The notes beneath the pieces were generated by a model. It did no database searches and had not been told where the DNA came from. It saw only the letters and a program-made list of their open reading frames with translations. A stretch of DNA of 64,000 nucleotides, taken from a bacterium (GTDB taxonomy: Bacteria; Patescibacteriota; Minisyncoccia; Phycocordibacterales; UBA2100). Below, in pieces: positions 15,826 through 46,385 of the stretch. Positions within the stretch are counted from its first letter, which is position 1. Each line of letters opens with the position of its first letter. The DNA is taken from NCBI GenBank assembly GCA_016789445.1, contig JAEUQT010000001.1:259603-323602 (forward strand). Reading direction: 5' to 3'. Position numbers and translations under genes: made by a program.

Positions 15826-16743
15826 TTAACGACGCCGTTTACCGTGGAATGTTCGATGAACCTCACGAAGATGCGTATCTGTAACGTGGGTGTATACCTG
15901 TGTGGTCGCGATGTTCGCATGACCAAGAAGTGCCTGCACGCTGCGTAGATCAGCTCCATTTCCCAAGAGGTCCGTCGCAAAGGCGTGCCGAATCACGTGC
16001 GGTGTAACCTTGCGGGTAATCCCGCCTTTCACGGCATAGTGCTTCACGATGCGTTCCACTGAACGGGTCGTGAGCCTGCCGGCATCTTTACCTTTACCGC
16101 TCTTACCTCCTCGGCCGTAGCCAACGAAGAGCGCCTCTCCCATGTCGCCCCGCTTCTTGAGGTACTCAGCAATAGTCTTCTTGGCTTGAGAGGAGAGGAA
16201 AACGACCCGCACCTTATCTCCCTTGCCGCGCACCGAGAATTCGTCGCGCGTAAGATCGATATCTGCATTAAGGGAACAGAGCTCCGAAACACGAAGTCCG
16301 GTAGAGAAAAGAAGTTCGAGGATGGCGCGATCGCGCAAAGCCTGAAGACTCTCTCCCGTCGGGCCTTTCATTAATCGATTCAGCTCGTCCGCCGTGATGA
16401 GATCCAGATCGCGACCGCCCACTTTCGCTAATTCAATTCTCTCGGGATTAAGAGACTCGATACCTTGTCGACGTAGATATTTAAGGAATGCACGTAGTGC
16501 GATGAGATAGTAGTTCTGCGTCTTTTTCTTCATGTCGCCGGAAACACCCGGCTGACGATTGAGCCAGATGCGGAATTCCCGCACAACGGGCTCGGTTAGT
16601 TTAGAAGGGGAGTTGACCTTCGTGTGATCAAGGAACCGCGTGAGGTAGCGATCGTAATTCTCGACCGTCTTAACTGAGCGGCCTTTTTCGATCTCGCAGT
16701 ATTCGAGGAACTGGGTCTTGAGGGATTTCAGATCCTGTGCCAT
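15826..16743 (-). CDS. xerD: tyrosine site-specific recombinase, XerC/XerD-like
   Basis: An N-terminal SAM-like domain is followed by a catalytic domain with R...HxxR...Y motifs (HVIRHAFATDLL, LLGHANIATTQVYTHV). ATG at 16743; the ORF track extends to a TTG at 16752. Confidence 0.8.
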   Translation of the reverse strand: MAQDLKSLKTQFLEYCEIEKGRSVKTVENYDRYLTRFLDHTKVNSPSKLTEPVVREFRIWLNRQPGVSGDMKKKTQNYYLIALRAFLKYLRRQGIESLNPERIELAKVGGRDLDLITADELNRLMKGPTGESLQALRDRAILELLFSTGLRVSELCSLNADIDLTRDEFSVRGKGDKVRVVFLSSQAKKTIAEYLKKRGDMGEALFVGYGRGGKSGKGKDAGRLTTRSVERIVKHYAVKGGITRKVTPHVIRHAFATDLLGNGADLRSVQALLGHANIATTQVYTHVTDTHLREVHRTFHGKRRR

Positions 16744-16809
16744 GTCGCACAATATTGTACCGCACCAAAAAGAAAGGGCCGCGCATGGCGCGACCCAGTT
16801 GGAAGAATC

Positions 16810-24297: not shown

Positions 24298-25824
24298 ATG
24301 AAGCAGAAGATCGCGTCCGGTTTCGCACGCGTATTCAGCGCCCAGCCCGCGTTGCCGAATGCAGCGCCGGTCTCCGTCGAATGCGATATCGTGAAAGGCC
24401 TGCACGCCTTCACCATCGTCGGTCTTCCTGATAAATCCGTCGAGGAAGCGAAGGATCGTCTTGCCTCGGCGATCAAGAACAGCGGTCTCGAATCCCCGAA
24501 ACGCAGCAACAAGAAGATCGTACTTTCCCTTGCCCCCGCCGGACTCAAGAAGGAGGGCGCGGTCTTCGACTTGCCGATGGCGCTCTCGTTCCTGCTGGCG
24601 TCCGAACAAGTGAAGTTCGATCCAGCAGGCAGATTGTTTGCAGGGGAACTGGCGCTTGATGGCGAGATCCGACCGATCCGCGGCACGCTTTCCATCGCCT
24701 CTATCGCACAGAAAGAAGGATTCACTGATGTGTACGTGCCGCGCACTAACGCCGATGAAGCAGCACTCATCTCAGGATTGAATATCCATCCACTCGATGA
24801 CCTCTCACAGACACTCGAGGTTCTGCGATCGAAGGGGACGCCGCATCGGCGACGCGTCATTGCAGCAACTCACGATGACAATGCGCTCGATGATGTGCGC
24901 GGACAGGAAAGCGCGAAACGCGCACTCGTCATCGCTATGGCCGGAGGACACAATATCGCCCTCTACGGCCCGCCCGGCACCGGAAAGACCATGCTCGCGC
25001 GCGCCGCTGTTTCAATTCTGCCCGACCTCTCAGAAGAAGAGATGATCGAGGTGACGACTATTCATTCTTTGTCGGGCACTCTTCAGGGCGATGTGGTCCG
25101 ACGCCCGCCCCTGCGTACACCACATCACACGTCATCCTATGCATCGCTCATCGGCGGCGGCTCTTCCAGTCCGCGACCTGGCGAAGTCACGCTCGCACAC
25201 CGCGGCGTCCTGTTTCTCGATGAATTTCCTGAATTCCACCGTGATGTGATCCAAGCGCTCCGCGAACCTCTCGAGGACAGCGTGGTGAGCGTCGCACGTT
25301 CCAAAGGATCGTCGGTTTTTCCCGCGAATTTCATGCTGATCGCCGCACTCAATCCCTGCCCGTGCGGATACTGGGGATCGAATAGGTGCGAATGCATGCC
25401 GCATGCGGTCGAAAAATACCGACGGAAGATCAGTGGCCCTATCGCTGATCGTATTGATATGTGGGTGACGGTCCCTGAAATACCGCTCGAAAATCTCACG
25501 CGCAAAAGCAAGGCGGGACATTCAGAATCGAAAGCGGCTCGTGAGGCAGTGCTCCATGCTCGTGAACGGCAACATGCGCGTTTCCTCGGGACAAAGTTAC
25601 GGATGAACGCCGACATGCGAGCTCGAGACATCGAAACTCATGCCGCACTCAGCGATAGCGCCGAGAAAGCCCTCGTACAAGCGGCAGAGCGCATGAAGTT
25701 ATCCGCACGAGGCTTTCATCGCACCATCAAGCTTGCCCGCACCATCGCCGACCTTGCCTCATCCGAAAGCATCGAGACCCCTCACATGCTCGAAGCGCTC
25801 CAATATCGTGCACGCGAGCTCTAA
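24298..25824 (+). CDS. comM: YifB/ComM-family Mg-chelatase-like AAA+ ATPase
   Basis: 508 aa. N-terminal Lon-like domain, Walker A GPPGTGKTM, Walker B VLFLDEFPEF, and a C-terminal ChlI-type domain. Confidence 0.85.
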   Translation: MKQKIASGFARVFSAQPALPNAAPVSVECDIVKGLHAFTIVGLPDKSVEEAKDRLASAIKNSGLESPKRSNKKIVLSLAPAGLKKEGAVFDLPMALSFLLASEQVKFDPAGRLFAGELALDGEIRPIRGTLSIASIAQKEGFTDVYVPRTNADEAALISGLNIHPLDDLSQTLEVLRSKGTPHRRRVIAATHDDNALDDVRGQESAKRALVIAMAGGHNIALYGPPGTGKTMLARAAVSILPDLSEEEMIEVTTIHSLSGTLQGDVVRRPPLRTPHHTSSYASLIGGGSSSPRPGEVTLAHRGVLFLDEFPEFHRDVIQALREPLEDSVVSVARSKGSSVFPANFMLIAALNPCPCGYWGSNRCECMPHAVEKYRRKISGPIADRIDMWVTVPEIPLENLTRKSKAGHSESKAAREAVLHARERQHARFLGTKLRMNADMRARDIETHAALSDSAEKALVQAAERMKLSARGFHRTIKLARTIADLASSESIETPHMLEALQYRAREL

Positions 25825-30444: not shown

Positions 30445-30491
30445 ATTCTAACATCGCGCAGTGATGCACCAGCTATACTGTGTGTACGAAT

Positions 30492-31478
30492 ATGGTGATC
30501 AACGAAGGCGGGAACTATCAAGACATGATCGCCGGCATCGAAGCCGAGAAAAAAAGCGTTGTCATCACCGATGACGCAGACACGAAGAAGGAAGGGTGGA
30601 TCCATCGCCATCCGTTTCTTGCAACCATCCTCGGCATCGTCGGACTTTTGTTTCTCGGCATTGCCCTGGTCGCTAATCGCATCGATGTAAATCCTGCGAG
30701 TTCCAGTGGCGCATGGGGCGGTGCAGGCGGTGCGTTCTTTGGAACAATTAAGAACGCCATTCCTACAGGGGTTAATACAAGCGACGTCGTGGTACGGCTT
30801 CAGTCACCTGATGATGCGTATGCCGCGGTGCCGATTTACAAGCCAACGGAACAAACCGACGTGCCAGCCGGCGTCGACGACATCGCGTCGCTCCTTGCGC
30901 AATTAGTGCAACACACGCCGGTTACCCCAGCCTCCACTCAAGAACCGGCAACACCCGATAGTTATTCATTCATCCCACAAGGATTGGTGAGCACCGAACC
31001 AACCACCAAGAAATTAAGCGCTGAACAAGAGAGGCTCAAAAGCTACGGAAACGCCGTCGGTACCCACATAAAAGGATATGAGGATACGCACGCTGGCTCC
31101 GCACAGATCCTCAAGGACCACGTGGAGGACCGCACGAATCCGGATAAGATACGTGCGCTCAAGATCCTCGGGACCGACATGCAGCAATTGGGGAATGACC
31201 TTAAAGACTTAGCAGAAGTGCCGGCTGATATTGCTGGCATGCACCGCACCTACGCAAATGCATACTTCGCTGCGGGTGCGAATCTCATTTTGATAGCGGA
31301 CACCTCCAGCGACGAACAGTTCGTCGACGCAATAACCAAGTACAACGCGGTCGTCGAGAAGCTCTCAGTGCAATTCCAGCTTCTTGTCGCACTCTTCGGC
31401 ACCAATGAGGTGTCATTCTCCCAGTCGGAACCGGGAAGTATCTTCATGTTTAGTCCGAATCTCTCGCTCGCGCAGTGA
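30492..31478 (+). CDS. hypothetical membrane-anchored protein; first gene of the T4SS-like cluster
   Basis: TM segment FLATILGIVGLLFLGIALVA. A TATACT -10-like element lies immediately upstream. Start alternatives are GTG 30480, ATG 30492 and ATG 30525. Confidence 0.5.
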   Translation: MVINEGGNYQDMIAGIEAEKKSVVITDDADTKKEGWIHRHPFLATILGIVGLLFLGIALVANRIDVNPASSSGAWGGAGGAFFGTIKNAIPTGVNTSDVVVRLQSPDDAYAAVPIYKPTEQTDVPAGVDDIASLLAQLVQHTPVTPASTQEPATPDSYSFIPQGLVSTEPTTKKLSAEQERLKSYGNAVGTHIKGYEDTHAGSAQILKDHVEDRTNPDKIRALKILGTDMQQLGNDLKDLAEVPADIAGMHRTYANAYFAAGANLILIADTSSDEQFVDAITKYNAVVEKLSVQFQLLVALFGTNEVSFSQSEPGSIFMFSPNLSLAQ

Positions 31479-31490
31479 TATAATTTTCGC

Positions 31491-32351
31491 GTGAACTCGG
31501 GACGCTCTCGTGGGGTTTCTCCCATTGCCACTGCAGCCGCACTTTCCGTTGCGCTTCTTCTCGCGGCAATCGGGTCATATATCGGTGATCACGTTCGTCG
31601 ACCTTCTACTCAAGCGCCCAAAGCGGCTCCGACAGCGGCACAAGAACAGCGATATGCATCAGTAGAAGATGCGGACAAGAATGGCCTGCCGGATTGGCAG
31701 GACGAATTGATGCGCGGTGGCGTCTCGTTCAGTACGACCAGCGCCTCAACGACCGAATCACGCGACCCCGTAACTGCTCTCGGCACTTCCTTAATCAACT
31801 CCCTCGCAAGCGGTTACTCCTCGCTTAAGGAGTTCAATATGTATTCAGACGAACAGGCAGAGAAGCTGGCTACGACCTTGGCCGCAAACTTCAAAGCACC
31901 CGACACCACGGTGGCCCATACGATTGATGAACTCACGGTCGATCCCGATACCTCATCTGGCGCCATCCTAGAGTACCGCAGCGACATGCGTGTGGCGCTT
32001 GCAGGCCTCGTCGATCTCGAAGCGGAACCGGAATTCTCTTTGTTTGCGCGCTACATCCAGACCAATGACCCTAAGTGGCTTACGGAACTCGGTAAAGCCG
32101 CTGAACGTTATCGCACCGCCGAGACAAATCTCATGAAAGTTACGGTCCCGGACACCGCCGCATATCTTCACCTCCGTGCAACGAACGCGACCGGTACCTA
32201 TGCCCAGACACTGGAGCGACTTGTCCGATTTGCGAAAGACCCACTCGCAACCATGGCGCTTTTGAGAACGTATAATGAGTCTGAGCGAGAATACCTTCTC
32301 GCGTTTGATGCATTGGCGAAATTCTATGCTGAGAATACTAGCGGGAACTAG
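31491..32351 (+). CDS. hypothetical membrane-anchored protein (286 aa)
   Basis: GTG start, N-terminal hydrophobic segment IATAAALSVALLLAAIGSYI. No family recognised. Confidence 0.45.
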   Translation: MNSGRSRGVSPIATAAALSVALLLAAIGSYIGDHVRRPSTQAPKAAPTAAQEQRYASVEDADKNGLPDWQDELMRGGVSFSTTSASTTESRDPVTALGTSLINSLASGYSSLKEFNMYSDEQAEKLATTLAANFKAPDTTVAHTIDELTVDPDTSSGAILEYRSDMRVALAGLVDLEAEPEFSLFARYIQTNDPKWLTELGKAAERYRTAETNLMKVTVPDTAAYLHLRATNATGTYAQTLERLVRFAKDPLATMALLRTYNESEREYLLAFDALAKFYAENTSGN

Positions 32352-32364
32352 GGAAGATCGTGTC

Positions 32365-33924
32365 GTGCGGGCGATACTTTGCGCAGCGCTCGTGCTGTTT
32401 CTCCTCTCTATCGTTCCGGTCTTCGCACAAGAGGCAGAAGAGCCGGCCCCTACACCAACCCCGACTCCGAGCCCGACGCTCTCAAATGACGGTATCTTCG
32501 GATGCCGCGGCCAAGGAGCTAATATCGCAAACGTCGGTACGCTTTCCGCGATCGGCGGAGTGTATGTTCCCGTCAACGACGCAGCGGTAACGCTCAATAC
32601 CGGCTATCTCGTATATAAGGAATGCGTTCTCGATGCGGTTGCGCGCAAGATCGCTGAAAATTCCACATCCGAACAAGCGCGTCAGGTTATTAACGCAATC
32701 GGAAACGGTCGCGGCGGTAACCCTCAATACGTCGTGAATGAGCGCAACGAGATCAAGCAACAGAACAACATTCTCGTCGTGAACATGCTCCAGAACGCCG
32801 ATAACACCAATGCGGTCTGCTCGGCATTCCGTGGTTCCGTAAGAAGCACTATTGCACGCCAGTATGTCCTGAACACAAACCAGGCTGCTTCTCCGTTTAC
32901 CTGCACCATGCCGGGAGAGGGAAGCAGCTACTGGGAACGCCTCGCGGCACTGCGCGATCCGCGCAATAACGAATACGGCGCATATCGAATCGTCGACGAA
33001 TTGCGACGACGAACGCTTTCATATAACGAATTCAACCAACGCGAACGCTGGCAACGATCGGGAGGTTTCTACGACACGACGAGCAGCAACGAGGACCCGA
33101 TGAACTCGAACATCATCACGCCCGGCTCTATCGTGCAACGCTCGCTTGATCAGATGCTCGGCTCCGGTTTCCGTCAACTTGAAAGCGCAGATGAGATCGA
33201 TCAGGTGGTAGGTAATCTCTGGGGAGGTCTTACGACCCAGCTCGTCGCCGATACTCGAGGCCTTTCGGGCCTTACACAGTCGGTCAATGGACAGCCGTCA
33301 TACATCGATCGCATGACGGCACAGACCGCCGCAAGCGTCCGCCAACAGGCGGCCAACACCGCCCTCAGCGTTATCGGGGCCGCTCGCCAGATCGAGACGA
33401 CCTATCGCCAAGCGAAAGAGGGAATCGCGACCGCGCTCTCTAATTCCATCGAGCAGCTCCGTGCAGCGGAGAATCAATGCTGGGGACTCATTATCCCGAA
33501 AGTACAGGAAGCTGCAGGAACAGGAACACAACTCAATATCGCAACCTCGACCCGTTTCTCGCAGCCGATCATCGATGCGCAGATCGCACCGCTCGCCACC
33601 AGCACCATTCGCGATATCCGCAATTCCGACGCAGCTATCGCGCTTCTCAACGAGCTCATCTCAAGCGTATCGAACAGCGCTTCGCAAGCGAACCAGCAGC
33701 AGGCACTCCTTCGTCTCGACACCATGGTTGCAAACCGCCAGCTTCATACCGCTACGGATGCAACAAACGCGTCGACGCAGCGCGACAACGTGGCGAGCGC
33801 GCTTACGAAGCTTGTCGAGGACACGGTCAAAGCCTGGGGGGATAGCACCGATCCGAACGTCGGATGGTGCAACGTCAATAATCAGGAGGTGGTTACGAAG
33901 TGGCTTAACGAGTGGAGGATATGA
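32365..33924 (+). CDS. large secreted hypothetical protein (about 520 aa)
   Basis: Signal peptide RAILCAALVLFLLSIVPVFA followed by a Pro/Thr linker. Start ambiguous between ATG 32326 (26-nt overlap with the previous gene) and GTG 32365. The stop overlaps the next start (ATGA). Confidence 0.5.
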   Translation: MRAILCAALVLFLLSIVPVFAQEAEEPAPTPTPTPSPTLSNDGIFGCRGQGANIANVGTLSAIGGVYVPVNDAAVTLNTGYLVYKECVLDAVARKIAENSTSEQARQVINAIGNGRGGNPQYVVNERNEIKQQNNILVVNMLQNADNTNAVCSAFRGSVRSTIARQYVLNTNQAASPFTCTMPGEGSSYWERLAALRDPRNNEYGAYRIVDELRRRTLSYNEFNQRERWQRSGGFYDTTSSNEDPMNSNIITPGSIVQRSLDQMLGSGFRQLESADEIDQVVGNLWGGLTTQLVADTRGLSGLTQSVNGQPSYIDRMTAQTAASVRQQAANTALSVIGAARQIETTYRQAKEGIATALSNSIEQLRAAENQCWGLIIPKVQEAAGTGTQLNIATSTRFSQPIIDAQIAPLATSTIRDIRNSDAAIALLNELISSVSNSASQANQQQALLRLDTMVANRQLHTATDATNASTQRDNVASALTKLVEDTVKAWGDSTDPNVGWCNVNNQEVVTKWLNEWRI

Positions 33925-36032
33925 TCGCATCCCGAACATTCCGCCTCGCCCTCGTCTTTCTCGTCTCGGCACTTTTCATTGCTGCCATAATTACGCCGCA
34001 TATTGCCCTCGGCCAGGAAGCGGCAGCACAGGCAACCATCGAGCCTAATGATTCTTGCAGTATCTGGAACGGAACCTGGGGATTCAACTGTGGCATCTGG
34101 TACCCATTCATGAGCGCGTTGGGAACCTTACTCCTTTCGTTCAGTATCAGTGTACTCGTGGTGCTGGGAGCAATCTTCGATCAATTCCTCTCGGCGCTGG
34201 TCGTCTCTTTTCAGGACACACTCGTCTCACTCAACATACTCGGTGGCATTCAGATCGCTTGGCAGCTTTTCCGCGATATCACCAACGTCGTCATTATCGG
34301 CGTCTTCGTCTTCGTCGCCATCATGACCATCCTCGGCAGCACAGAGTATGGGACCAAACGGCTTGTCTCTCGCGTTCTCATCGTAGCGATCCTGATCAAT
34401 TTCAGCCTCCTTTTCACACGCGTCGTCATTGAAAGCACCAATTTCGTATCAGCTCAATTCGCGCGGTCTATGCCGAACAATGCGCTCACCGCTGGGGTTG
34501 CGCAGAGCTTCTTGCAGGCATTTGGTATCGACGGCACGATCAGCGGCACCTACGAGCTTACGCGCCGCGTCGCAACGGAAACGGATAGCGGCTGGGCGGC
34601 ACTCATCTATGGAGTCGTCGCGGGCAGCGTGCTCTTAGTCATCGCACTCGTCTTTCTCTATGGGATAGTCATCATCAGCGCTCGCGCGCTGCTTCTGGTG
34701 TTCATGATGATTACTGCACCGATCGCGTTCGCATCATTCTTAATCCCCACATGGTCAAACCAGGCATATATCGGTTGGAACAATTGGTGGTCAAACCTCC
34801 TCAAGGCGGCGATGTTCGGCCCGATATTCATGGTGTTCCTCTGGATCGCGATGCAGATAATCGCCCGGGGGAGCGTGGCAAACGCAGGAGCGGCTCTCGG
34901 CAAACTCGCGAATGACCCATCCAAGATGGATGTGAACGCGTGGCAGCAGCTGATCTTCCTCATGATCGGTACCGGCGTTCTCTTTATCGGCATACGCGCA
35001 TCAAGTTCATTCGCAGCGTCCATCGGCGGCTTCAACTGGGCGACTGTAGCATCACTACTGCCGGTCACTCTCGGTTCTCGCTTCGCAGCAGCTCCTGCAC
35101 TTCGTCGCTTCGTCGGCCAGCCTGCGCTTGAACGACAACTTCAGTACGAAGATGACATCAAGCGAGCGAAAGCGCGAGGCGACTGGTCTCAAGCAGCACT
35201 TCTTCAGAAAGACTATTCGAAGGCTGCGAAAATGGCATCTCGTGACTTTAATGCGATGAATTCCAATGTTTCGAAGCTTCTCACGAAATCACTTGGCGTT
35301 CCCAGCATGCTGGGCGGAGAAAAGAAATTGGGCGGAGCTGCTGGTATCGCGACTGCCGCGGCAAAAGAAACAGCGAAGGAGCTCAAGAACCTTCAGCCTT
35401 CGGCTCAAGATCTCGCTTCTGCAAGCAAAGCGGCGGCAAGCGAGGTTCGAGAGGGGAATAAGGCGCTCGCAGAATCTCTCAAGGGTGATCGTGATGCGGC
35501 TGTCGCACGACGAGAAGCCGCGGGCGGATCAGGTTCGGGTACGAGGACTGAACAGAAACAGATTACCGACACCATCCGCAAGGCGGTTGAAGATGGCAGC
35601 TCTTCGGGCGCTAACGCTGCGCAGCGCCAGATCGAACACAAACGCGAAGTGGATGCCGAACGAAAAGCTGAGATCGGTCAGGTTACTAACAAGATTGCCG
35701 AAGTTAAGACCGACGTGAACCGAAATATCGCACAGGAAATCAATGACGCGCAGGCCGCCCTAGGTCCGCTCTCTATGCTCGATGCAGACGTAACAAATGC
35801 CACTAACCGGATGACAATGAATCAGTTCGAGACAAATCAAAAGGCGATTGAAGCTAGTCAGAATGCGCAGTTAGGTGCCATTGATATGCTACAGAGCGCA
35901 ATTCAAGACTCTCTTTCCCGAAGCGGGAATGATAATGCAGCAACAGCGAAAATTGCTATGAAGCTGGTTGAAAAACAGAATCCGAACGTTGGGCGAGTTA
36001 TGAGCATTGCAAGACAAAATGGTCTTAAATAA
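33921..36032 (+). CDS. VirB6/TrbL-like polytopic membrane protein with a long hydrophilic coiled-coil C-terminal extension
   Basis: N-terminal signal/TM, a Cys-containing loop, then about 6 TM helices over residues ~60-380, followed by ~320 aa of Ala/Lys/Glu-rich hydrophilic sequence. This topology is typical of T4SS VirB6/TrbL. ATGA start-stop overlap with the upstream gene. Confidence 0.55.
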   Translation: MIASRTFRLALVFLVSALFIAAIITPHIALGQEAAAQATIEPNDSCSIWNGTWGFNCGIWYPFMSALGTLLLSFSISVLVVLGAIFDQFLSALVVSFQDTLVSLNILGGIQIAWQLFRDITNVVIIGVFVFVAIMTILGSTEYGTKRLVSRVLIVAILINFSLLFTRVVIESTNFVSAQFARSMPNNALTAGVAQSFLQAFGIDGTISGTYELTRRVATETDSGWAALIYGVVAGSVLLVIALVFLYGIVIISARALLLVFMMITAPIAFASFLIPTWSNQAYIGWNNWWSNLLKAAMFGPIFMVFLWIAMQIIARGSVANAGAALGKLANDPSKMDVNAWQQLIFLMIGTGVLFIGIRASSSFAASIGGFNWATVASLLPVTLGSRFAAAPALRRFVGQPALERQLQYEDDIKRAKARGDWSQAALLQKDYSKAAKMASRDFNAMNSNVSKLLTKSLGVPSMLGGEKKLGGAAGIATAAAKETAKELKNLQPSAQDLASASKAAASEVREGNKALAESLKGDRDAAVARREAAGGSGSGTRTEQKQITDTIRKAVEDGSSSGANAAQRQIEHKREVDAERKAEIGQVTNKIAEVKTDVNRNIAQEINDAQAALGPLSMLDADVTNATNRMTMNQFETNQKAIEASQNAQLGAIDMLQSAIQDSLSRSGNDNAATAKIAMKLVEKQNPNVGRVMSIARQNGLK

Positions 36033-36037
36033 TCATT

Positions 36038-36586
36038 ATGCCCGGGCAAGATCCTGAACTAAATAAACACATTGCCGAACGATTCAAGGCATTGCCGCCG
36101 GTCGTCCAGAAAGCGATTACCTCTTCAGATATTGAGAAGAATCTCCGCACCATGGCAGATGGTCAAAAATTACATGTGGACCAATGGCAGGCACTCGAAA
36201 ACGAGGTCATGTTCTCCTTACTGGGCTTCAAGCCCGTAGCAGAGTTGGAAAAAAACCTCGTAAAGTCGGTTGGAGTTACCGCCGAAGTAGCTCATGTGCT
36301 TGCGGTAGATGTAAATCGCATCGTCTTTGAACCAATTCGACAAGAACTAGAGAGAGAACTACAACACCCGGCGGCCCAGGAAGCTGCCGTAAGCGGCACC
36401 GAAGCCGCACGAGCACAGGCGATTTCACAAGAAGCGGCGGCGGCAGCTCCCGCACCGACTCCACCCACTCCAAAACCTGACGCCACTGCTGCGCGAGCGC
36501 CTGCTTCGGGGGCATATAAACCGGGGGAGACCTCTGCACAACGAAAATCGGTTACCGACGATCCATATCGTGAAGTGCCACTCTGA
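36038..36586 (+). CDS. hypothetical protein (182 aa), Ala/Pro-rich C-terminus
   Basis: ATG 6 nt after the VirB6-like stop. No motif recognised. Confidence 0.45.
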   Translation: MPGQDPELNKHIAERFKALPPVVQKAITSSDIEKNLRTMADGQKLHVDQWQALENEVMFSLLGFKPVAELEKNLVKSVGVTAEVAHVLAVDVNRIVFEPIRQELERELQHPAAQEAAVSGTEAARAQAISQEAAAAAPAPTPPTPKPDATAARAPASGAYKPGETSAQRKSVTDDPYREVPL

Positions 36587-36629
36587 AAGATGAAGTAGTG
36601 GCGCACAAATACTTGGTATACTGCTGGGG

Positions 36630-37127
36630 ATGCAGTTCCAGGTTCCTCAATTCATCGAGGTGGAGGACAAGATCTTCGGTCCGCTGACGTTCAAGCAGTT
36701 CGTCTATATCACGGGCGGAGCCGGTATTTCCTACATGCTCTGGCGATCGCTTCCGATCTACGTCGCCGTCCCATTCATCGCACTCTTCGGCGGCCTCGGG
36801 ATCTCACTGGCCTTTTTCCAATACAACGGCCAACCGTTCATCCAATCCCTTGAGCATGCCTTTTTCTACTTCACCCGCAACAAGCTCTACCTTTGGAGCA
36901 ACGAAGAAGCTATCAATACCCGTAAGAAGGCGGCAACTATCACCACCGCCTCGGCAACTCCCTACGTACCGCACCTCTCTGACAGCAAACTGCACGACCT
37001 TTCGTGGAGCTTGGATATCCAGGAGCGCATCAACGCCGGCACCGCCGACGCGGAGGATAGGGAACAGGTCTCGCCTCTGAAGGACTTGGTCGCTCCGGTA
37101 CGCACCGCGAAGGACGCTCTCATTTGA
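36630..37127 (+). CDS. PrgI-family/VirB3-like small membrane protein of Gram-positive-type T4SS
   Basis: 165 aa. Motif FKQFVYITGGAGISYMLW plus a second TM (VPFIALFGGLGISLAFF). Sits immediately upstream of the VirB4 ATPase, as PrgI/VirB3 does. Confidence 0.5.
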   Translation: MQFQVPQFIEVEDKIFGPLTFKQFVYITGGAGISYMLWRSLPIYVAVPFIALFGGLGISLAFFQYNGQPFIQSLEHAFFYFTRNKLYLWSNEEAINTRKKAATITTASATPYVPHLSDSKLHDLSWSLDIQERINAGTADAEDREQVSPLKDLVAPVRTAKDALI

Positions 37128-37128
37128 T

Positions 37129-37818
37129 ATGCCACAAGACACCGCACAATCTGCCTCCTCGAAGGTCAGCAGCCGTTCGACACAGGAGTTCGTCCCGATC
37201 AGCGAGGTCCGTGACGGCATCGTGGTCCTCAAGGATGGGAGCCTGCGTGCAATCCTTCTCGCTTCATCCATCAACTTCGCCCTCAAATCGGAGGACGAAC
37301 AGACCGCCTTCATCGTCCAGTTCCAGAATTTCCTTAACTCATTGGACTTTTCGTGCCAGATCTTCGTCCAGTCCCGCATGTTGGACATCCGTCCGTACAT
37401 CGCGACCTTGGAAGTAGCGTACAAGAAACAGATGGACGACCTCATGCGTATCCAGATCCGTGAATACATCGAGTTCATCAAGAGTTTCACGGAGGCAGCG
37501 AATATCATGACGAAGAACTTCTTCGTGGTCGTGCCATACGCTCCCGCAGCGCTCCAATCGCTCAATAGCGGCGGTATCGCGAGCAAGCTCCCGTTCGGAC
37601 AGAAGACCTCTCCCAGCGCCGCCGAAGCCAATCGCACCTTTGAAGAGAAGGTCTCGCAGCTCGAACAGCGCGTCGGTATCGTGCAGCAGGGATTGGTGCG
37701 TTGCGGCGTCCGCACCGTACAATTAGGCACCGAGGAGGCGATCGAGCTCTTCTACAAGCTCTTCAACCCGGGCGAAGAAGGGAAGCCGATGCCAGTGGAT
37801 AACATCACGCCGCAGTGA
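37129..37818 (+). CDS. VirB4/TrbE N-terminal fragment, encoded as a separate ORF
   Basis: The segment VPISEVRDGIVVLKDGSLRAILLASSINFALKSEDEQTAFIVQFQNFLNSL matches the remembered VirB4 N-terminus pattern (lvdD-tialrnGdlmrvfrvqGvafe-a-ddaein-w-erlN-llrni). It ends at TGA 37816-37818. Confidence 0.55.
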   Translation: MPQDTAQSASSKVSSRSTQEFVPISEVRDGIVVLKDGSLRAILLASSINFALKSEDEQTAFIVQFQNFLNSLDFSCQIFVQSRMLDIRPYIATLEVAYKKQMDDLMRIQIREYIEFIKSFTEAANIMTKNFFVVVPYAPAALQSLNSGGIASKLPFGQKTSPSAAEANRTFEEKVSQLEQRVGIVQQGLVRCGVRTVQLGTEEAIELFYKLFNPGEEGKPMPVDNITPQ

Positions 37819-37819
37819 T

Positions 37820-39769
37820 ATGGGACTTTTTGATTTCCTTACGAAAAAGAGCGACGAGCCGGCAGCGGTCTTACCGGTCTTGCCGGAAGAAATCTATCGC
37901 ACCGGCGTCCTTGGCCTGCAGGACGTCATCGCTCCGCACGCACTGAAGATCTCTCCGCGCGAACTCGATCTGGGGGAGAAGATCGCCCGCACCTTTTTCG
38001 TCATCTCGTACCCTCGCTTCCTCACGACCGGCTGGTTTGCGCCGATCATCAACATGGACAAGGTGATCGACGTCTCGATTTACGTCCATCCGATGGATAC
38101 GAACGACATGCTTCGTAAGTTCCAGAAGAAAGTCGCGGAGGTACAGAGCCAGATCAGCGCTCGCGAGGAGAAGGGGATGGTGCGTGATCCGGTGCTGGAC
38201 ACCGCCTATTCAGACCTCGAAAAGCTCCGCGACAGCCTTCAGCAGGCACAAGAGCGCATCTTCGAAGTCGGGCTCTATCTCACCATCTACGGGTCCACCC
38301 GTGAGGAGATCGATAAGACGGAGAGCGAGATCCGCAGCATCTTGGAGTCACGCCTCGTGTACATCCGCCCCGCACTCTTCCAGCAGGAACAGGGCTTCCG
38401 CTCGGTCATCCCGCTCGCGGGCGACGAGCTGGGCGTGCACACCAAGCTTAATTCCGCACCGCTTTCCTCGATCTTCCCGTTCATTTCCTTCGACCTTACG
38501 TCGGATAGGGGAATCCTCTATGGCATCAATCGTCACAACTCGTCCCTCATCCTCTTCGATCGGTTCTCGCTCGAAAACTACAACTCGGTGACCTTTGCGA
38601 AGTCCGGCTCCGGTAAGTCGTATACGACGAAGCTGGAGATCCTGCGAAGCCTCATGTTCGATACCGAAGTCATCGTCATCGACCCGGAACGAGAATACGA
38701 ATACCTTGCGGAAACCGTCGGCGGCCGCTACTTCAATATCTCACTCTCGTCTGAGCACCATATCAACCCGTTCGACCTTCCGATCCCACGCGAAGACGAA
38801 GCTCCGTCGGATGTGCTCCGTAACAACATCATTACGCTCGTGGGTCTTTTCCGCATCATGCTCGGCGGACTTACTCCGGAAGAGGACGCGATCATCGACA
38901 AGGCGATCACGGAGACCTACGCCCTCAAGGACATCACCGCCGATGCGAACTTCGCCTCGATCGAACCACCGCTTCTTTCTGACTTCGAGCTCGTCCTCAG
39001 CGGCATGGAGGGTTCGGAATCGCTCGTGCAACGACTCTCGAAATACACGAAGGGAACATGGTCGGGATTCATGAACCGCCCGACGAACGTGGACATGAAC
39101 AAGAAGCTTGTCGTCTTTTCCGTACGCGACATGGAAGACGATCTGAAGCCGGTCGCGATGTACATCATCACCCACCACATCTGGAATACCGTCCGCAAGG
39201 AACTCCGCAAAAGATTGCTCGTCATCGATGAAGCGTGGTGGATGATGAAATCCCAAGACACCGCCTCCTTCCTCTTCGGTATCGCAAAGCGCGGCCGTAA
39301 GTACTATCTCGGCCTCTCGACGATCACCCAGGACGTGAACGACTTCCTCACTTCGCCCTATGGAACGGCCATGATCACCAACTCGTCGATCCAGATCCTC
39401 CTGCGCCAGTCACCGACATCAGTCGATCTCGTCCAGCAGACCTTCAAACTCTCCGATGAAGAGAAGTATCTCCTCCTCGAGTCGGATGTGGGGGAAGGAA
39501 TCTTCTTCGCCGGTCTCAAACATGTCGCGATCAAGGTGATCGCCTCGTATACCGAGGACCAGATCATCACGTCAGACCCGTCCCAGATCCTTGCAATCAA
39601 GAAAGCGAAGCAGGAACTGGCTGCATCGAATGAAATCCCCGGTGGCCCTGCCGCACCGGCGGCCCGCGCAAGCGCCGCTGAAGCACTGAAGGCGATGGCT
39701 CTCAAGGAAGCGAGCGGCACTGCGCAACAGGCATCACAGGAACCGCTTCCACCGACCAGCGTCCAGTAG
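37820..39769 (+). CDS. VirB4/TrbE/PrgJ-type T4SS ATPase (main body)
   Basis: 649 aa with Walker A FAKSGSGKSYTT and Walker B LLVIDEAWWMM. The arrangement follows VirB4 family order. It starts 1 nt after the preceding stop (TGA-T-ATG), in a different frame. Confidence 0.75.
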   Translation: MGLFDFLTKKSDEPAAVLPVLPEEIYRTGVLGLQDVIAPHALKISPRELDLGEKIARTFFVISYPRFLTTGWFAPIINMDKVIDVSIYVHPMDTNDMLRKFQKKVAEVQSQISAREEKGMVRDPVLDTAYSDLEKLRDSLQQAQERIFEVGLYLTIYGSTREEIDKTESEIRSILESRLVYIRPALFQQEQGFRSVIPLAGDELGVHTKLNSAPLSSIFPFISFDLTSDRGILYGINRHNSSLILFDRFSLENYNSVTFAKSGSGKSYTTKLEILRSLMFDTEVIVIDPEREYEYLAETVGGRYFNISLSSEHHINPFDLPIPREDEAPSDVLRNNIITLVGLFRIMLGGLTPEEDAIIDKAITETYALKDITADANFASIEPPLLSDFELVLSGMEGSESLVQRLSKYTKGTWSGFMNRPTNVDMNKKLVVFSVRDMEDDLKPVAMYIITHHIWNTVRKELRKRLLVIDEAWWMMKSQDTASFLFGIAKRGRKYYLGLSTITQDVNDFLTSPYGTAMITNSSIQILLRQSPTSVDLVQQTFKLSDEEKYLLLESDVGEGIFFAGLKHVAIKVIASYTEDQIITSDPSQILAIKKAKQELAASNEIPGGPAAPAARASAAEALKAMALKEASGTAQQASQEPLPPTSVQ

Positions 39770-39770
39770 T

Positions 39771-40079
39771 GTGAAGTACATCGACCGACACACCGCCATT
39801 AAGATGATCGCGACGGCAGCGGCAGTCGACGCAGCGCAGGGTGCCCTCACCGCATCGTATGTGGGCATCCTTTTTGCACCACTCCTCAGCGCCGGCGCCG
39901 CCTATGGATTCTGGAAATGGTTTGCCCGCCACGAAGGAGAGAGCCCGGATCCACGTAAGAACCCCCGCCTCATGACCATCGCGCTTGAATTCATTCCCGG
40001 CCTCGACGCATTACCGCTCTGGACCATCACCATCATTCTTGCGGTCATCGCGCATAACCGCGCTTCTCGGGAGGTATAA
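39771..40079 (+). CDS. small two-TM membrane protein (102 aa)
   Basis: GTG start 1 nt after the VirB4 stop (TAG-T-GTG). Hydrophobic helices are visible. Confidence 0.45.
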   Translation: MKYIDRHTAIKMIATAAAVDAAQGALTASYVGILFAPLLSAGAAYGFWKWFARHEGESPDPRKNPRLMTIALEFIPGLDALPLWTITIILAVIAHNRASREV

Positions 40080-40087
40080 TATCCGGG

Positions 40088-41122
40088 ATGGTCTCTCTCC
40101 GGAGGAGCACATGGGGTCTTCTCGTACTTCTGATTGTCCCGTTTTTTACGCACGCACAACTTCTTACCGGACTCGAGCGACCGCTTGATGTCTCAATGAC
40201 TCCGCAATATCCCGCAGCAGGGGAAGAAGTGCGGCTGAGTGTCTCAAGCTACGGACTGGATCTCGATCGCAGCGCCATCATCTGGTACGCGGACGGGAAA
40301 GAGATCGCCCGGAATACCACAGAAACAAAGGTAACCGCCGGCAAATTGGGCTCTCTCATAAATATCACCGTCGTCGCAGAAGAAACGGATGGACTCATCG
40401 GCAGCGGTAGCGCTCGGATCCGCCCGACCGAAGTCGATCTTATATGGAGCTCGGATTCCTACGCGCCGCCGTATTTCAAAGGAAGGAAGCTCGCGGGAAG
40501 CAGCGCTCGGATCCGCGCGGAAGCACTGGTACGCTTCACGCGCGCCGATGGTACGATGATACCTTCAAACGAAATCATCTATACCTGGCATCGCGGCACG
40601 ACACGCATCCTGCAGGGAAGGGGCCGTTCAAGTGTGGAATTCGCCGGTCCTGCATTATTCAGCAGCGAGGAGGTCACGGTATCCGCACAATCTACTGACG
40701 GTGCGTATGTGGGCAGAGCATCGGTGCGCATCTCAGGGGTCGATCCGACGCTTGAGCTCTACGAGAACCATCCGCTTTTCGGCGTCCTCTATCATCGCGC
40801 GCTTACCGGCAGCGTGGTTACCGCCGAGAAAGAGCAGCGCGTCACCGCAGTCCCGTATTTCGCGCACGTCAGTACCCCTGAAGAGAAAGCCCTTTCATAC
40901 TCGTGGTCCGTCGCCGGAGGACCGGTTCGACCAAATCCGGATGAACCGCAAAACCTCACCGTCACTTCCAATGGCTACGCCGGACCCGCACGCATCGAAC
41001 TTGATCTCACGAGCGCGAGCGATCTTTTCTTGAAAGCGCGAGGAAGCTGGGAATTGGTATTCAGCGAATCAGCATTGTTCTCGGGATCAGGAAGTGATGA
41101 TCCGTTTGCGCGACCCGAATAG
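40088..41122 (+). CDS. secreted hypothetical protein (344 aa)
   Basis: Signal peptide MVSLRRSTWGLLVLLIVPFFTHA. Composition suggests a beta-rich protein. Confidence 0.5.
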   Translation: MVSLRRSTWGLLVLLIVPFFTHAQLLTGLERPLDVSMTPQYPAAGEEVRLSVSSYGLDLDRSAIIWYADGKEIARNTTETKVTAGKLGSLINITVVAEETDGLIGSGSARIRPTEVDLIWSSDSYAPPYFKGRKLAGSSARIRAEALVRFTRADGTMIPSNEIIYTWHRGTTRILQGRGRSSVEFAGPALFSSEEVTVSAQSTDGAYVGRASVRISGVDPTLELYENHPLFGVLYHRALTGSVVTAEKEQRVTAVPYFAHVSTPEEKALSYSWSVAGGPVRPNPDEPQNLTVTSNGYAGPARIELDLTSASDLFLKARGSWELVFSESALFSGSGSDDPFARPE

Positions 41123-41124
41123 AT

Positions 41125-42366
41125 ATGAAAAAACACGAGACCACGTTCATGTATATCGGCTTTGCGGCCATCGGGCTTCTTCTCGTCGGCCTCGCAGGTT
41201 GGTACTTCTTTATCTCCCGTCAGACCGCAGATCTCGAGACCCTGAGAGAGTCCCGCGGTTTCGACATCGGCGTACCGTCATTCGGCGGCACTCGTGGTTC
41301 AACCGCAGAAAATATCGAGGGAGGTTTCGGACTCGCTCCGTCTTCTGAACAACCCTCTGCCCAAGAAGGGGAAGAACCTCGTGCGCCACGTTTCTGGCGC
41401 GTAAGCACCAGTCCTATTGCAGGCGCTGGTTTCGTAATGATCGATTCCGTTCCGGTGCTGCGCTACGTAGAACGCTCAACCGGACATGTATTTGATGTGA
41501 ATCCGATGACCGGCACGATCACCCGCAGAACCAATCGTCTGATTCCTAAAGTATACGAGGCGATCGTGGGGCCGCACGATGCCGTGATTCATCGTACGAT
41601 TACCGCAGACGGGGAACGCGAGACTTTCGTAGGACAACTCGCGACGACGACCGTCGACGGATTCACTCCGCTCACCGGCACCGATCTCGGACCTGATGTG
41701 CGCGACATCGGATTCACCAAATCCGGCATCGTCTTCCTCTCGGCAACTGAGAGCGGCGCCACGCAATTGATAGAAGCAGCGATCGATGGATCCAAGCCGG
41801 TCGAAAAACGACTATTATCCGCGGGTGATTTCAAGCTTGAGAGCCTCGTCGATGGCCGCACCATCCTCACTGAACGTCCGGCAAGCGGCATTCCGGGATA
41901 TGCGTATGAAGCAGGCACCACACTCATCCCGCTCGCCCGCGCAGTACCGGGACTTACGCTCGCAGCACGAGCAAGTTCAACGGCAGTCATCATAGGTGCG
42001 GATGACGGATCCAAGCTCTCCCTCGCGGTGCGCCCGACTCGGGACGCTTCACTCGTACCGCTCGATCTCGCGACCGTCGCCGATAAGTGTGTCTGGATGC
42101 CGGGAACCAGTCTCACCGCATACTGCGCCGTACCGCGCACGCTGCAACCGCTTGGATATCTCACCAACTGGCATCGCGGGACGATACACACCAGCGATTC
42201 GTGGCACCTTGTCGATGTCGGAGCAGGGAAGACGGAGAAATTCTTCGAGATCCGCGAGGATGATGCTATCGATGTGGAGCGCCCGATCACCGACGAAGGA
42301 GGGAATTACATCGCATTCATAAATGCCCGCGATAAATCGCTCTGGTTACTGCGTATAATTGAATAG
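41125..42366 (+). CDS. membrane-anchored hypothetical protein (413 aa)
   Basis: N-terminal TM FMYIGFAAIGLLLVGLAGWYFFI, then a large extracytoplasmic domain. Confidence 0.5.
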   Translation: MKKHETTFMYIGFAAIGLLLVGLAGWYFFISRQTADLETLRESRGFDIGVPSFGGTRGSTAENIEGGFGLAPSSEQPSAQEGEEPRAPRFWRVSTSPIAGAGFVMIDSVPVLRYVERSTGHVFDVNPMTGTITRRTNRLIPKVYEAIVGPHDAVIHRTITADGERETFVGQLATTTVDGFTPLTGTDLGPDVRDIGFTKSGIVFLSATESGATQLIEAAIDGSKPVEKRLLSAGDFKLESLVDGRTILTERPASGIPGYAYEAGTTLIPLARAVPGLTLAARASSTAVIIGADDGSKLSLAVRPTRDASLVPLDLATVADKCVWMPGTSLTAYCAVPRTLQPLGYLTNWHRGTIHTSDSWHLVDVGAGKTEKFFEIREDDAIDVERPITDEGGNYIAFINARDKSLWLLRIIE

Positions 42367-42368
42367 GT

Positions 42369-42722
42369 ATGCCTTGTCAGGAAACATCACCCGGGAATTC
42401 AGGTTGCGGGACCGTCGCAGAAAGCCGCACCGTATATATGTCGAACCTGTTCAATCCGAACAATACGGACCTGCAGGCATTCTTCAATATCCTCTTTACG
42501 GTCGCCATATCTATCGGTGCCATCCTTGCGGTTCTCCGGCTCGCATATGCAGGCGTCGTCTATATGACGACCGACCTCGTGACCAGCAAGCAGAATGCGC
42601 GTCAGATGATCGCCGATGTCGTCTTGGGACTCATCGTCCTCTTGGCGATCTGGGTTATCCTCTTCCAGATCAATCCCGACCTTCTTAACCTCGATATCCT
42701 CCGCAGCGTACGGACTTCGTAG
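42369..42722 (+). CDS. candidate T4SS pilin (VirB2/TrbC-like small hydrophobic protein)
   Basis: A charged leader is followed by two hydrophobic helices (FFNILFTVAISIGAILAVLRLAYAGVVYM ... VVLGLIVLLAIWVILFQI). Size and topology are typical of a VirB2 propilin. Alternative start ATG 42438. Confidence 0.45.
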   Translation: MPCQETSPGNSGCGTVAESRTVYMSNLFNPNNTDLQAFFNILFTVAISIGAILAVLRLAYAGVVYMTTDLVTSKQNARQMIADVVLGLIVLLAIWVILFQINPDLLNLDILRSVRTS

Positions 42723-42725
42723 AAT

Positions 42726-43190
42726 CTAGGCGGCCGGAGCGTAGCGGATAACGACACGTCGGTTGCGTCCTTCTCCTTGGGATTCGGTCTTTACGTTCGG
42801 CGCGTCCTGAAGCGTCGTGTGCACGATGAGCCGCTCGTAGGCACTCATGGGATTCAATTCAACATCATATTGAAACGAGCGAGCGCGCTCCGCCATCATA
42901 AGGGCCTTCGCTTGAAGATCACGGATCTGTCGGGAGCGATACTCATTCACATCGACGAGGAACATCGGTTCTTCGCCACTCTCGGTTTTCGAGTGACGCT
43001 GTTCAACGATCTTCTTGAGAAGGAGATCGATGGCATGCACCGTATCCCCATGCGCACCGATCAGAGCTTTCGGATCCTGCACGCTGATGTTGTAGACGAT
43101 CTGTCCTGCAACATCGATGCGAGAGACGCTGTCATAGGCGACGCCAGTCGCATCAAGGAGTTCAGTGAGCGTCTTCTCAACGTCTTCCAT
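42726..43190 (-). CDS. jag: Jag/R3H-domain RNA-binding protein (SpoIIIJ-associated)
   Basis: 154 aa with KH-like and R3H regions. Conserved position next to yidC. Confidence 0.75.
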   Translation of the reverse strand: MEDVEKTLTELLDATGVAYDSVSRIDVAGQIVYNISVQDPKALIGAHGDTVHAIDLLLKKIVEQRHSKTESGEEPMFLVDVNEYRSRQIRDLQAKALMMAERARSFQYDVELNPMSAYERLIVHTTLQDAPNVKTESQGEGRNRRVVIRYAPAA

Positions 43191-43254
43191 AGGAAAGACT
43201 GTATCACTATCGCGGGAGCGCGGCTAGTTTCCTTCAAAACGGCTTTATTGCTTA

Positions 43255-44013
43255 CTATTTCGCTGTTTCGGAAGCCGTTTCCTTCGCAGGTTCGCGGAAC
43301 CGGCGACCCATCACGAACTCCTGGGCGATCATGAAGACGTTGCTCGTAGTCCAGTAGAGCGGGAGCGCCGCCGCAAGTGTCGATGAGATGCCGGCAAAAA
43401 GAAGAGGAAGGACATAACGTGCCTGCAGATCGAAACTGTGGGCCATGTCCGACGAGAACGTCGGGTTCTCCTCCTTTACACGTGGCTTACGCTTGCCCAT
43501 GGAAAGACGGGTATAGAGATACTGGGTGAGGCCCGTAAGCGCCGCCAAGAAGAAACTGCGCTCAGACATGTCGAACATGCCCAGGAACTCCATGTTCACA
43601 CGCTCCGGCGCAGGAACGAAGGCATAGAGCGTATCCGCATTGATGGCAGGGAAACCGCCTTTCCAGAAGACCCAGTAGAGACCGAACAGGATCGGGAGCT
43701 GGAGGAAAATAAGGAAGAACGTCGCAAACGGACGGATGTTACGTTCGCGATAGAGCGCGAAGATGGCACGAGCCTGCTCTTCAGGCTTGTCTTTGAATTT
43801 CTCCTTGAGTCGTTCTACCTCGGGAGCAATCTCGCGCATCAGGGCCTGGGTACGGATTGCCTGTCGAGAGAGGGGGAGGAGGATCAATTTGACGAAAATA
43901 GTAAGAATGACGACCGCGATGCCGATGTCGTGCGCCGGCACGATATCCACCAGAAACACGAGTCCGTTATAGAGCGGCTCGTAGATGAAATTGAAGAAAG
44001 CAGCTTTGAACAT
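43255..44013 (-). CDS. yidC: membrane protein insertase YidC (short Gram-positive/CPR type)
   Basis: 252 aa with multiple TMs. The conserved YidC/Oxa1 core region is present. Confidence 0.85.
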   Translation of the reverse strand: MFKAAFFNFIYEPLYNGLVFLVDIVPAHDIGIAVVILTIFVKLILLPLSRQAIRTQALMREIAPEVERLKEKFKDKPEEQARAIFALYRERNIRPFATFFLIFLQLPILFGLYWVFWKGGFPAINADTLYAFVPAPERVNMEFLGMFDMSERSFFLAALTGLTQYLYTRLSMGKRKPRVKEENPTFSSDMAHSFDLQARYVLPLLFAGISSTLAAALPLYWTTSNVFMIAQEFVMGRRFREPAKETASETAK

Positions 44014-44038
44014 TGTGGCATTCTACCCCAGGCTGGCC

Positions 44039-44377
44039 TCAATCGATACTATTGCCGCTCTTACGTGCCAGAGCGAAGATTTCACTCCGGATCCGAGCTG
44101 CGTCAGCCTCAGTTGCCGGCTTTTTTGCATAGAAAACAAGAGCTACCCCGGGAGAGAGGCGAGGGAGTGCCCGCTGCACAGCAGCTCGCGCACGTCGCTT
44201 GATGAGATTGCGCGTATTCGCTCGGGGAGCGATCTTGGCCGAGACCACGCAGGCAAATCCAGGACTACTCCTGTCCGGCAAGGTACCGAACGACAGCGAG
44301 AAAAGGGTGCCATGCACCCTTTTGAAGCCCCGCATCCGCGTGAAATCGGCTCGGGAAAGTCGATAGTGTGCCGGCAT
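44039..44377 (-). CDS. rnpA: ribonuclease P protein component
   Basis: 112 aa, basic protein. Start overlaps the rpmH stop (TAATG). Confidence 0.85.
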   Translation of the reverse strand: MPAHYRLSRADFTRMRGFKRVHGTLFSLSFGTLPDRSSPGFACVVSAKIAPRANTRNLIKRRARAAVQRALPRLSPGVALVFYAKKPATEADAARIRSEIFALARKSGNSID

Positions 44378-44511
44378 TAGAGTGCCAAGCGGGCGCGACC
44401 CTTACGCATACGGCGCTGGATGACGCGCTTACCCGTCTTGGTCTTGAGGCGTGCACGGAAACCGTGCGTGCGGACACGCTTGATCTTCTTCGGCTGGTAG
44501 TTTCGCTTCAT
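44377..44511 (-). CDS. rpmH: 50S ribosomal protein L34
   Basis: Translates to [44 protein letters not shown], almost the universal L34 sequence. Missed by the ORF track because it is under 60 aa. Confidence 0.95.
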
Positions 44512-44700
44512 GGCGGAAAAATAGCACGTATTTCCTTGCCTTTCAAGCGGCAAAGTGGGGGAGAAGTGAGTTATCCACAGGTTATAAACATGTGGATGAA
44601 TACCCCCTACCGCTTCCCGACAGACACCGAGAGCGTATAATGCTTCTATATATGCGTGCGTGCGTCTCGATAGAGGGAGGTTGTTTGGATATCCACACCT
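44512..44700. other. oriC part 1 (rpmH-dnaA intergenic) with DnaA boxes and the dnaA promoter
   Basis: TTATCCACA at 44571-44579 (perfect), TGTGGATGA at 44591-44599 (reverse orientation), aTATCCACA at 44689-44697, and a TATAAT element near 44634. Confidence 0.7.
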
Positions 44701-46050
44701 ATGATGACTAATCGAGAATTGTGGCAGAACGCCCTCGTCCAGATAGAGCTTGGCACCTCCGAAGCCTCATTCCGTACCTGGTTCCGTAATACGGACATCG
44801 TCTCGAGAGACGCCAATATCGTCCAGATCGCCGTTCCCTCCAAGATCGTCAAAGAGTGGCTCATGGATAAGCACCATAAGCTCATCTTAGGGACCCTTCG
44901 CTCGCTCGATAACACCATCCGCTCCGTCGAATACGTAGTCCATCGCTCAGCAGGGGAGCCTCGCCGCCAAGAGAAGCCACAACCACAACAGCAGAATGCT
45001 GCCTTAGATCTGGGAACCCTCTACATCGACAAGCGGGATAACCTCAACCCGCGATATACCTTCGATACGTTTGTCGTCGGCCCCTTCAATCAGCTCGCGC
45101 ACGCGGCGGCAAAGGCGGTTATCGAGCGCCCGGGCCTCGCGTATAACCCGTTCTTCGTCTACGGCTCAAGCGGCCACGGCAAGACTCACCTCATCCAGGC
45201 GATCGGGAACCATTTCAAGAAGATGCACACCAACAAGAAGGTCTTCTACGTCTCTTCGGAACGTTTCGCGGTGGACTTCATCAATGCGGTCTCTCGTGGT
45301 CGCGCAAATGAGTTCAAGGATCAATACCGTCAATATGACGTCCTCATCATGGATGACGTGCAATTCATGGCGGAGAAGGAGCGCACCCAGGAAGAGCTCT
45401 TCCACCTCTTCAATGCGATGCACGACAATAACAAGCAGATCATCTTCTCGTCTGATAAGCACCCTATGCTGCTCCCGGGCTTCGAAGATCGAATCCGCGG
45501 CCGCCTCTCGGCAGGTGTCATCATGGAAATTCCTGAACCGGATGTGGAAAGTCGTACCGCGATCATCAAAGCGAAAGTCGAACAGCTCGGCTTCAGCCTT
45601 GCCGATGACATCGTAGGCCACATCGCCGAGAGCGTTCGTGGCAATATCCGCGAACTCGAGGGTATCCTCAACATGATCGTCTGCAAGTCCCAGCTTAAAG
45701 GGAAGGCGATTTCGCTTCCGGATGTCCGTGCACTCATCAAGCACAATGTCCGACCGAACAAGGGAGTCTCCGTCGAAGAGGTGGTGCGTCGCATTGCCCA
45801 GTACTACGAAGTCGCCGAGAAAAGCATCTACGAAAAGACTCGGAAGAAGGAAGTGGTCAAACCACGCCAGATCATCATGTACGTCTTGCGGGAAGAGTTC
45901 AGCGTGTCGTATCCTTCGATAGGGGAGAAACTGGGTGGCCGCGACCACACGACGGTCATCCACTCGTGCGAAAAGATCAAAGAAGAGATCAAGCGGAACA
46001 ACTCGCTTGAACAGGAGCTCGAGCATATCCGCACGCTTGTCCACGCCTAG
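44701..46050 (+). CDS. dnaA: chromosomal replication initiator protein DnaA
   Basis: 449 aa. AAA+ motifs [10 protein letters not shown] and DDVQF, and a C-terminal DNA-binding domain. Confidence 0.95.
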
Positions 46051-46385
46051 CAGTATGAACTCCACCGACCTTCAGCAGGCTCACCATTCCAGGGCCGCTG
46101 AGGTGGAAGACATGGCGCATACCGGTGTGGGTAACCTGTGGACAGGTGAAGGATCGGTAATGGGGATAAGCGATGCGCGAAAGAAGGACAGACGCGGGGA
46201 TATCGTTATTACAGACTTTTCCGCAGTAATCCCCACCGCCTATCCCGGGCAATCGACAGGGTATTCCACAGGAGGTATGTACGAAAAAACGGCACGAGAT
46301 ATGGATATTTCAGGCTTATCCACCTATCCACGCTGCTAATAGTAATAATAAGTATTTATTTAGAAAGAATTATAAAAATACCCGT
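46051..46385. other. oriC part 2 (dnaA-dnaN intergenic) with DnaA boxes and an AT-rich DNA-unwinding element
   Basis: TTATCCACC at 46316-46324, TATCCACGC at 46325-46333 and tATTCCACA at 46262-46270. A 44-bp AT-rich run (taatagtaataataagtatttatttagaaagaattataaaaata) lies at 46337-46380. Confidence 0.65.

Follow-up and report, generated by a model that had tools for sequence, protein, structure and literature searches.

The gene cluster at positions 30480–42722 of the 64,000-nucleotide stretch of DNA analyzed here (the window) is very probably a vertically inherited, chromosomal type IV secretion system (T4SS) of the Patescibacteria, belonging to the 'Patescibacteria clade' within the monoderm MPF_FATA type and present here in its Paceibacteria version in a Kaiserbacteria-like genome. 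The cluster is real and biologically important, and is a further copy of a system published in 2023 and 2025, not the undescribed system that a preliminary description had proposed. A homolog known from Saccharibacteria, and essential there for epibiotic growth, lacks a recognizable relaxase or coupling protein (Wang et al., 2023; PMC10633639), and the system was catalogued in a survey of 3,035 Patescibacteria genomes that records TrsD, PrgI, VirB6, and VirB2-like parts, but no relaxase, and that places the Paceibacteria T4SS near dnaA, dnaN, rnpA, ksgA, and rpmH (Quinonero-Coronel et al., 2025; PMC12102498). The Patescibacteria T4SS is also treated in a review (PMC12857230). The composition and position published in the survey match those of the present cluster exactly, and its Paceibacteria arrangement shows no essential difference from it; the protein accessions of this MAG had no match in two of the survey's supplementary files (PMC12102498). 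Overall, the evidence supports reading the cluster as a T4SS-like apparatus that is minimal, chromosomal, and not conjugative, in a bacterium with a reduced genome.

The block contains 12 genes, all on the + strand and tightly packed (Table 1). Intergenic gaps range from −4 to 12 nt, with two exceptions: the 43 nt that precede g6, and the 77-nt overlap of the listed g2 and g3 ORFs, which shrinks to about 26 nt with a g3 start at 32326. The preliminary description was thus right that the genes are co-directional and tightly packed, but its count of sixteen was too high: the NCBI locus tags, which run in steps of five (JNK62_01820 for g4, JNK62_01835 for g7a, and JNK62_01860 for g11), leave room for exactly the genes listed here and so agree with a count of 12. 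Where it had listed at least seven signal-peptide or membrane-anchored proteins of no recognizable family, the block holds six without a Pfam family (g1, g2, g3, g8, g9, and g10), as g5 has no hydrophobic segment by the hydropathy script used to call such segments. Conservation was assessed in 80 related loci, fetched from Paceibacteria/Kaiserbacteria-type genomes among at least 572 related stretches. A conserved core, consisting of the VirB6-like g4, the PrgI/VirB3 protein g6, the split VirB4 ATPase (g7a and g7b), and the VirB2-like pilin g11, is embedded in lineage-specific envelope proteins, namely the g1/g2 paralogs, the helical g3, the small g8, the Ig-like g9, and the propeller protein g10. 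Neither a VirB8-like nor a VirB1-like protein could be identified among the genes of the block.

Table 1. Genes of the T4SS-like cluster and neighboring features, in window coordinates.
Feature	Coordinates	Strand	Description
g1	30480–31478	+	Membrane-anchored; one hydrophobic segment (residues 46–64); helical C-terminal domain; g2 paralog
g2	31491–32351	+	N-terminally anchored; g1 paralog
g3	32275–33924	+	Secreted or anchored, largely helical, ~530 aa; directly upstream of the VirB6-like gene
g4	33921–36032	+	VirB6/TrbL-like polytopic membrane protein; long low-complexity hydrophilic C-terminal tail
g5	36038–36586	+	Small; conserved N-terminal domain and conserved C-terminal DPYRE motif
g6	36630–37127	+	PrgI/VirB3-like membrane protein; PF12666, 37.7 bits (cut-off 27)
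g7a	37129–37818	+	TrsD-like, free-standing homolog of the VirB4 N-terminal domain; NCBIfam TrsD, 1.6e-8
g7b	37820–39769	+	VirB4 ATPase, MPF_FATA/CD1110 type; Walker A (GSGKS) and Walker B (LLVIDEAW)
g8	39771–40079	+	Small membrane protein; conserved IP....LPLWT-type motif
g9	40088–41122	+	Secreted; probable Ig-like/PKD-like beta-sandwich domains; N-terminal hydrophobic segment
g10	41125–42366	+	N-terminally anchored; probable TolB-like beta-propeller
g11	42369–42722	+	VirB2-like T4SS pilin; PF18895, 25.9 bits (cut-off 26.6)
Flank, outside the machine	42726–44553	-	jag 42726–43190, yidC 43255–44013, rnpA 44039–44377, rpmH within 44377–44553
oriC region	44554–46385		DnaA-box-like sites on both sides of dnaA (44701–46050); DnaA by Pfam

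The ATPase encoded by g7b scored 360 bits against the VirB4 CD1110 family (cut-off 325) and matched the TraG P-loop domain at 4.9e-26. Its upstream neighbor g7a matches N-terminal positions of VirB4 models (CD1110 2–118, VirB4_plasma 97–233), and the two proteins jointly span positions 2–118 and 186–733 of the CD1110 VirB4 model. The VirB4 ATPase earlier placed at 37129–39769 is therefore present, but not as a single gene: the first ORF stops at a TGA and the second begins one nucleotide on, in a different frame. The same two-ORF arrangement was found in 77 of the 77 related loci with a checkable junction, and as both ORFs are kept while spacers, frames, and stop codons vary, the split is genuine. 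Among plasmid-encoded VirB4 matches to g7b, the best 12 of at least 5,000 were 28–36% identical and came exclusively from Bacillota or Actinomycetota; these matches and the PrgI–VirB4 gene order were counted for a probable monoderm ancestry of the cluster.

The other core genes drew varying support. The earlier PrgI/VirB3-like assignment of g6 was borne out by its PF12666 score, and 76 of the 80 related loci carry the gene; a TATACT hexamer ends 8 nt upstream of its ATG, and a similar −10-like box precedes 48 of 74 orthologs. The pilin candidate g11 fell 0.7 bits below the Pfam cut-off for T4SS_pilin (PF18895), but 46 of its 62 positional orthologs match that family (best E-value 2.4e-10) and three match TrbC/VirB2, while g11 itself matched the NCBIfam ICE pilin-like model at 3.9e-5, so that the proposed VirB2-like identity was upheld. 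Its NCBI record (MBL8158261.1) starts at Met24 and is 94 aa long. No second pilin gene emerged when every ORF of the window was searched with a local profile. For g4, the VirB6/TrbL-like assignment was moderately supported. The protein has seven hydrophobic segments and no Pfam match of its own; TrbL/VirB6 (PF04610) was matched by 7 of 52 aligned sequences (g4 and 51 orthologs; best E-value 6e-5). A 430-aa N-terminal query was 100% identical to NCBI JNK62_01820. For the AlphaFold2 model of g4 (pLDDT 81.5), the top Foldseek matches in the PDB were R388 TrwI/VirB6 chains, with probabilities of 0.99–1.0 but E-values of only 0.014–0.17 and TM-scores of 0.39–0.47.

Around this core, g1–g3, g5, and g8–g10 fall into no Pfam or NCBIfam family in this analysis, and they belong to the class of genes left grey in the published synteny figure (PMC12102498). 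The present analysis adds a little on this class: the paralogy of g1 and g2, the Ig-like character of g9, the TolB-like beta-propeller of g10, and a weak lead for g3. The paralogy rests on hhalign of the two ortholog alignments (probability 98.4%, E-value 4e-15); g1 occurs in 17 and g2 in 29 of the 80 related loci, the g2 ortholog profile found no sequence match in the PDB, and a TATAAT hexamer ends 6 nt upstream of the g2 GTG start. The unassigned g3 is a weak candidate for VirB5. The g9 protein, which 77 of 80 loci encode, appears to be Ig-like: its ortholog profile matched Hoc of phage T4 (3shs; 2.2e-5), 14 of 64 orthologs matched BiPBP_C, and others matched Ig_3 or PKD. Similarly, g10 (69 of 80 loci) looks like a TolB-like beta-propeller, its ortholog profile matching TolB (7mx5) at 5.6e-5 together with eleven more TolB chains, and 4 of 63 orthologs containing PD40 repeats. 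Having no hydrophobic segment, g5 is presumably cytoplasmic; it was found in 48 of 80 loci and had no significant match in Pfam or the PDB. One hydrophobic segment of g8 was called by script and a second was read from the sequence. In a small local search, homologs were found in the same slot of 13 loci at E-values of 0.002 or less (10 below 2e-4, best 6e-8), while most of the closest relatives have no g8 and their g9 overlaps the VirB4 end; the place of g8, between VirB4 and g9, is variably occupied.

The position of the cluster is conserved as well. As the preliminary description had it, only jag, yidC, rnpA, and rpmH separate the cluster from oriC. The first three genes were identified by Pfam (R3H/KH, 60KD_IMP, and Ribonuclease_P) and rpmH by its L34-like translation; beyond them lie DnaA and then DnaN, DnaA-box-like sites at 44571, 44591, 44689, 46126, 46161, and 46316, and the cumulative GC-skew minimum, at 44–46 kb. 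Synteny next to dnaA, for which the preliminary description had proposed a test, was seen in related genomes: the order PcrA-KsgA-[cluster]-Jag-YidC-RnpA-RpmH-oriC-DnaA-DnaN recurs in the 12 loci for which gene order was listed. PBP1a follows DnaN in the recurring order, and gene presence over all 80 fetched loci fits this arrangement. Within the same genome pairs, conservation is higher for VirB4 (median identity 78.5%) and TrsD (62%) than for DnaA (54%) and DnaN (41%).

Like the T4SS of the Patescibacteria clade, the cluster combines TrsD-like and VirB4 proteins with PrgI/VirB3, VirB6, and a VirB2-like pilin near virB4, has no relaxase or coupling protein nearby, and lies on the chromosome beside dnaA, dnaN, rnpA, ksgA, and rpmH (PMC12102498). 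The T4SS of Southlakia epibionticum ML1 (SEML1_0006-0019) shares the order PrgI, TrsD-like hypothetical protein, VirB4 (DUF87), as well as VirB6-like proteins, PF18895 pilins, the lack of a recognizable relaxase or coupling protein, and low locus-tag numbers suggesting a place near the chromosome start (PMC10633639). Unlike the window, with its single pilin, single VirB6-like protein, and lack of a recognized VirB8-like protein, it has a six-pilin array, a pair of very large VirB6-like proteins, and an NTF2-like (VirB8-like) protein; the window has g1/g2, g3, g9, and g10 in addition. Among CD1110/CTn2-type MPF_FATA modules of Bacillota, which share a monoderm architecture without VirB7, VirB9, and VirB10, the Clostridium perfringens plasmid pSXP-169_2 (L081) encodes a VirB4 that is 31.5% identical and falls in the same NCBIfam family, with PrgI directly upstream. 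That VirB4 is a single 783-aa protein, and the plasmid also carries MobC, a relaxase, VirD4 (CD1115), an SLT cell-wall hydrolase, and topoisomerase III, none of which is in the window; the VirB2-like pilin of the cluster, in turn, is reported to be lacking in Gram-positive T4SS classes (PMC12102498). The Trs system of Staphylococcus pGO1 likewise pairs a separate small VirB4-N-terminal homolog (TrsD) with a VirB4-type ATPase, but is a conjugative plasmid system without a recognizable VirB6 or a pilin (PMC12102498). The R388 Trw stalk (TrwI/VirB6 and TrwJ/VirB5; PDB 7o3v, 8rtd) belongs to a diderm system with an outer-membrane core complex and gives weak similarity scores.

By analogy with known T4SSs, VirB6 and VirB3 would form a membrane translocon on which the VirB4 hexamer docks, with the TrsD-like protein supplying the N-terminal domain in trans. 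ATP hydrolysis would drive the extraction of pilin and its polymerization into a short pilus or conduit through the cell wall, and the extracytoplasmic accessory proteins may span the wall or bind the host.

An alternative, which we consider unlikely, is a DNA-uptake machine like Helicobacter ComB or archaeal Ced that imports host DNA for nucleotides or genes and exports nothing. As in ComB, a relaxase and coupling protein are missing; nucleotide synthesis is impossible for Patescibacteria (PMC10633639), and the ABY1-class T4SS adjoins comF, recG, and radA (PMC12102498); the ComM (24298–25824) and PcrA genes just upstream of the present cluster would also suit such a machine. However, the CedB match (3.6e-9) is weak and partial, covering only ~70 residues of the ATPase domain (439–509), and is taken as generic ATPase-core similarity, and the adjacency to ComM and PcrA is probably housekeeping synteny. 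In S. epibionticum, moreover, competence needs T4P and ComEC, and comEC deletion is non-lethal whereas the T4SS is essential (PMC12857230), so any import must be ComEC-independent. Quite unlikely, too, is an organelle for adhesion only, in which a VirB2-type fiber would hold the cell on its host without passing any substrate. The absence of a coupling protein nearby, the presence of a pilin, which the conjugative T4SSs of monoderms normally lack, and the accessory Ig-like and propeller domains, which are typical of binding proteins, would all suit such a fiber. Two PilB-type ATPases in the window nevertheless suggest that this genome encodes type IV pili, and such pili are implicated in Saccharibacteria adhesion (PMC12857230); the present data themselves do not tell fiber from conduit.

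That the cluster is an ordinary integrated conjugative element (ICE), or its remnant, near oriC by chance is highly improbable and has been largely refuted. Its VirB4 family is otherwise typical of monoderm conjugative plasmids and ICEs, and the window has a tyrosine recombinase gene (15826–16752), but this lies 14 kb away and has a XerC/XerD domain layout. In agreement with the preliminary description, the large ORFs of the 64-kb window, five of which (208–455 aa) have no significant Pfam family, included no relaxase, VirD4-type coupling protein, or VirB11; MobC is also missing, and the Clostridium comparator has MobC, relaxase, and VirD4 beside VirB4. In many Patescibacteria, VirD4 homologs lie far from virB4 (PMC12102498). 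There is no adjacent integrase in the window, there are no direct repeats flanking the cluster, and no GC anomaly was found, the cluster's GC content of 0.54–0.57 matching that of the flanks. The shared chromosomal position and the conservation of VirB4 beyond that of DnaA also argue against an ICE; the cluster is not a mobile element and has no conjugation-specific genes in the window. Finally, a decaying, non-functional T4SS with VirB4 frameshifted at 37818/37820, as the stop codon and frame change might suggest, has next to no chance of being correct and is refuted by the conservation pattern: the 77 loci keep two ORFs across many different junctions, both halves are highly conserved (g7b is 72–93% identical to VirB4 of the 80 related genomes, TrsD 54–82%), the Walker motifs, read from the translation, are intact, and TrsD is a recognized separate component in pGO1 and ~2,200 Patescibacteria genomes (PMC12102498).

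For the Patescibacteria T4SS represented by this cluster, a role at the cell surface or in host interaction is favored over conjugation, as judged by analogy with one cultivated Saccharibacterium of a different class, S. epibionticum, for which alone essentiality has been demonstrated. The earlier proposal of a cell-surface or host-interaction apparatus was thus a reasonable guess, given the window's lack of conjugation genes and the role of the Saccharibacterial homolog in epibiotic growth. As the S. epibionticum Tn-seq results suggest, the machine would have no role in conjugation and may instead support a host-dependent lifestyle, through protein export to the host bacterium or the uptake of host molecules.

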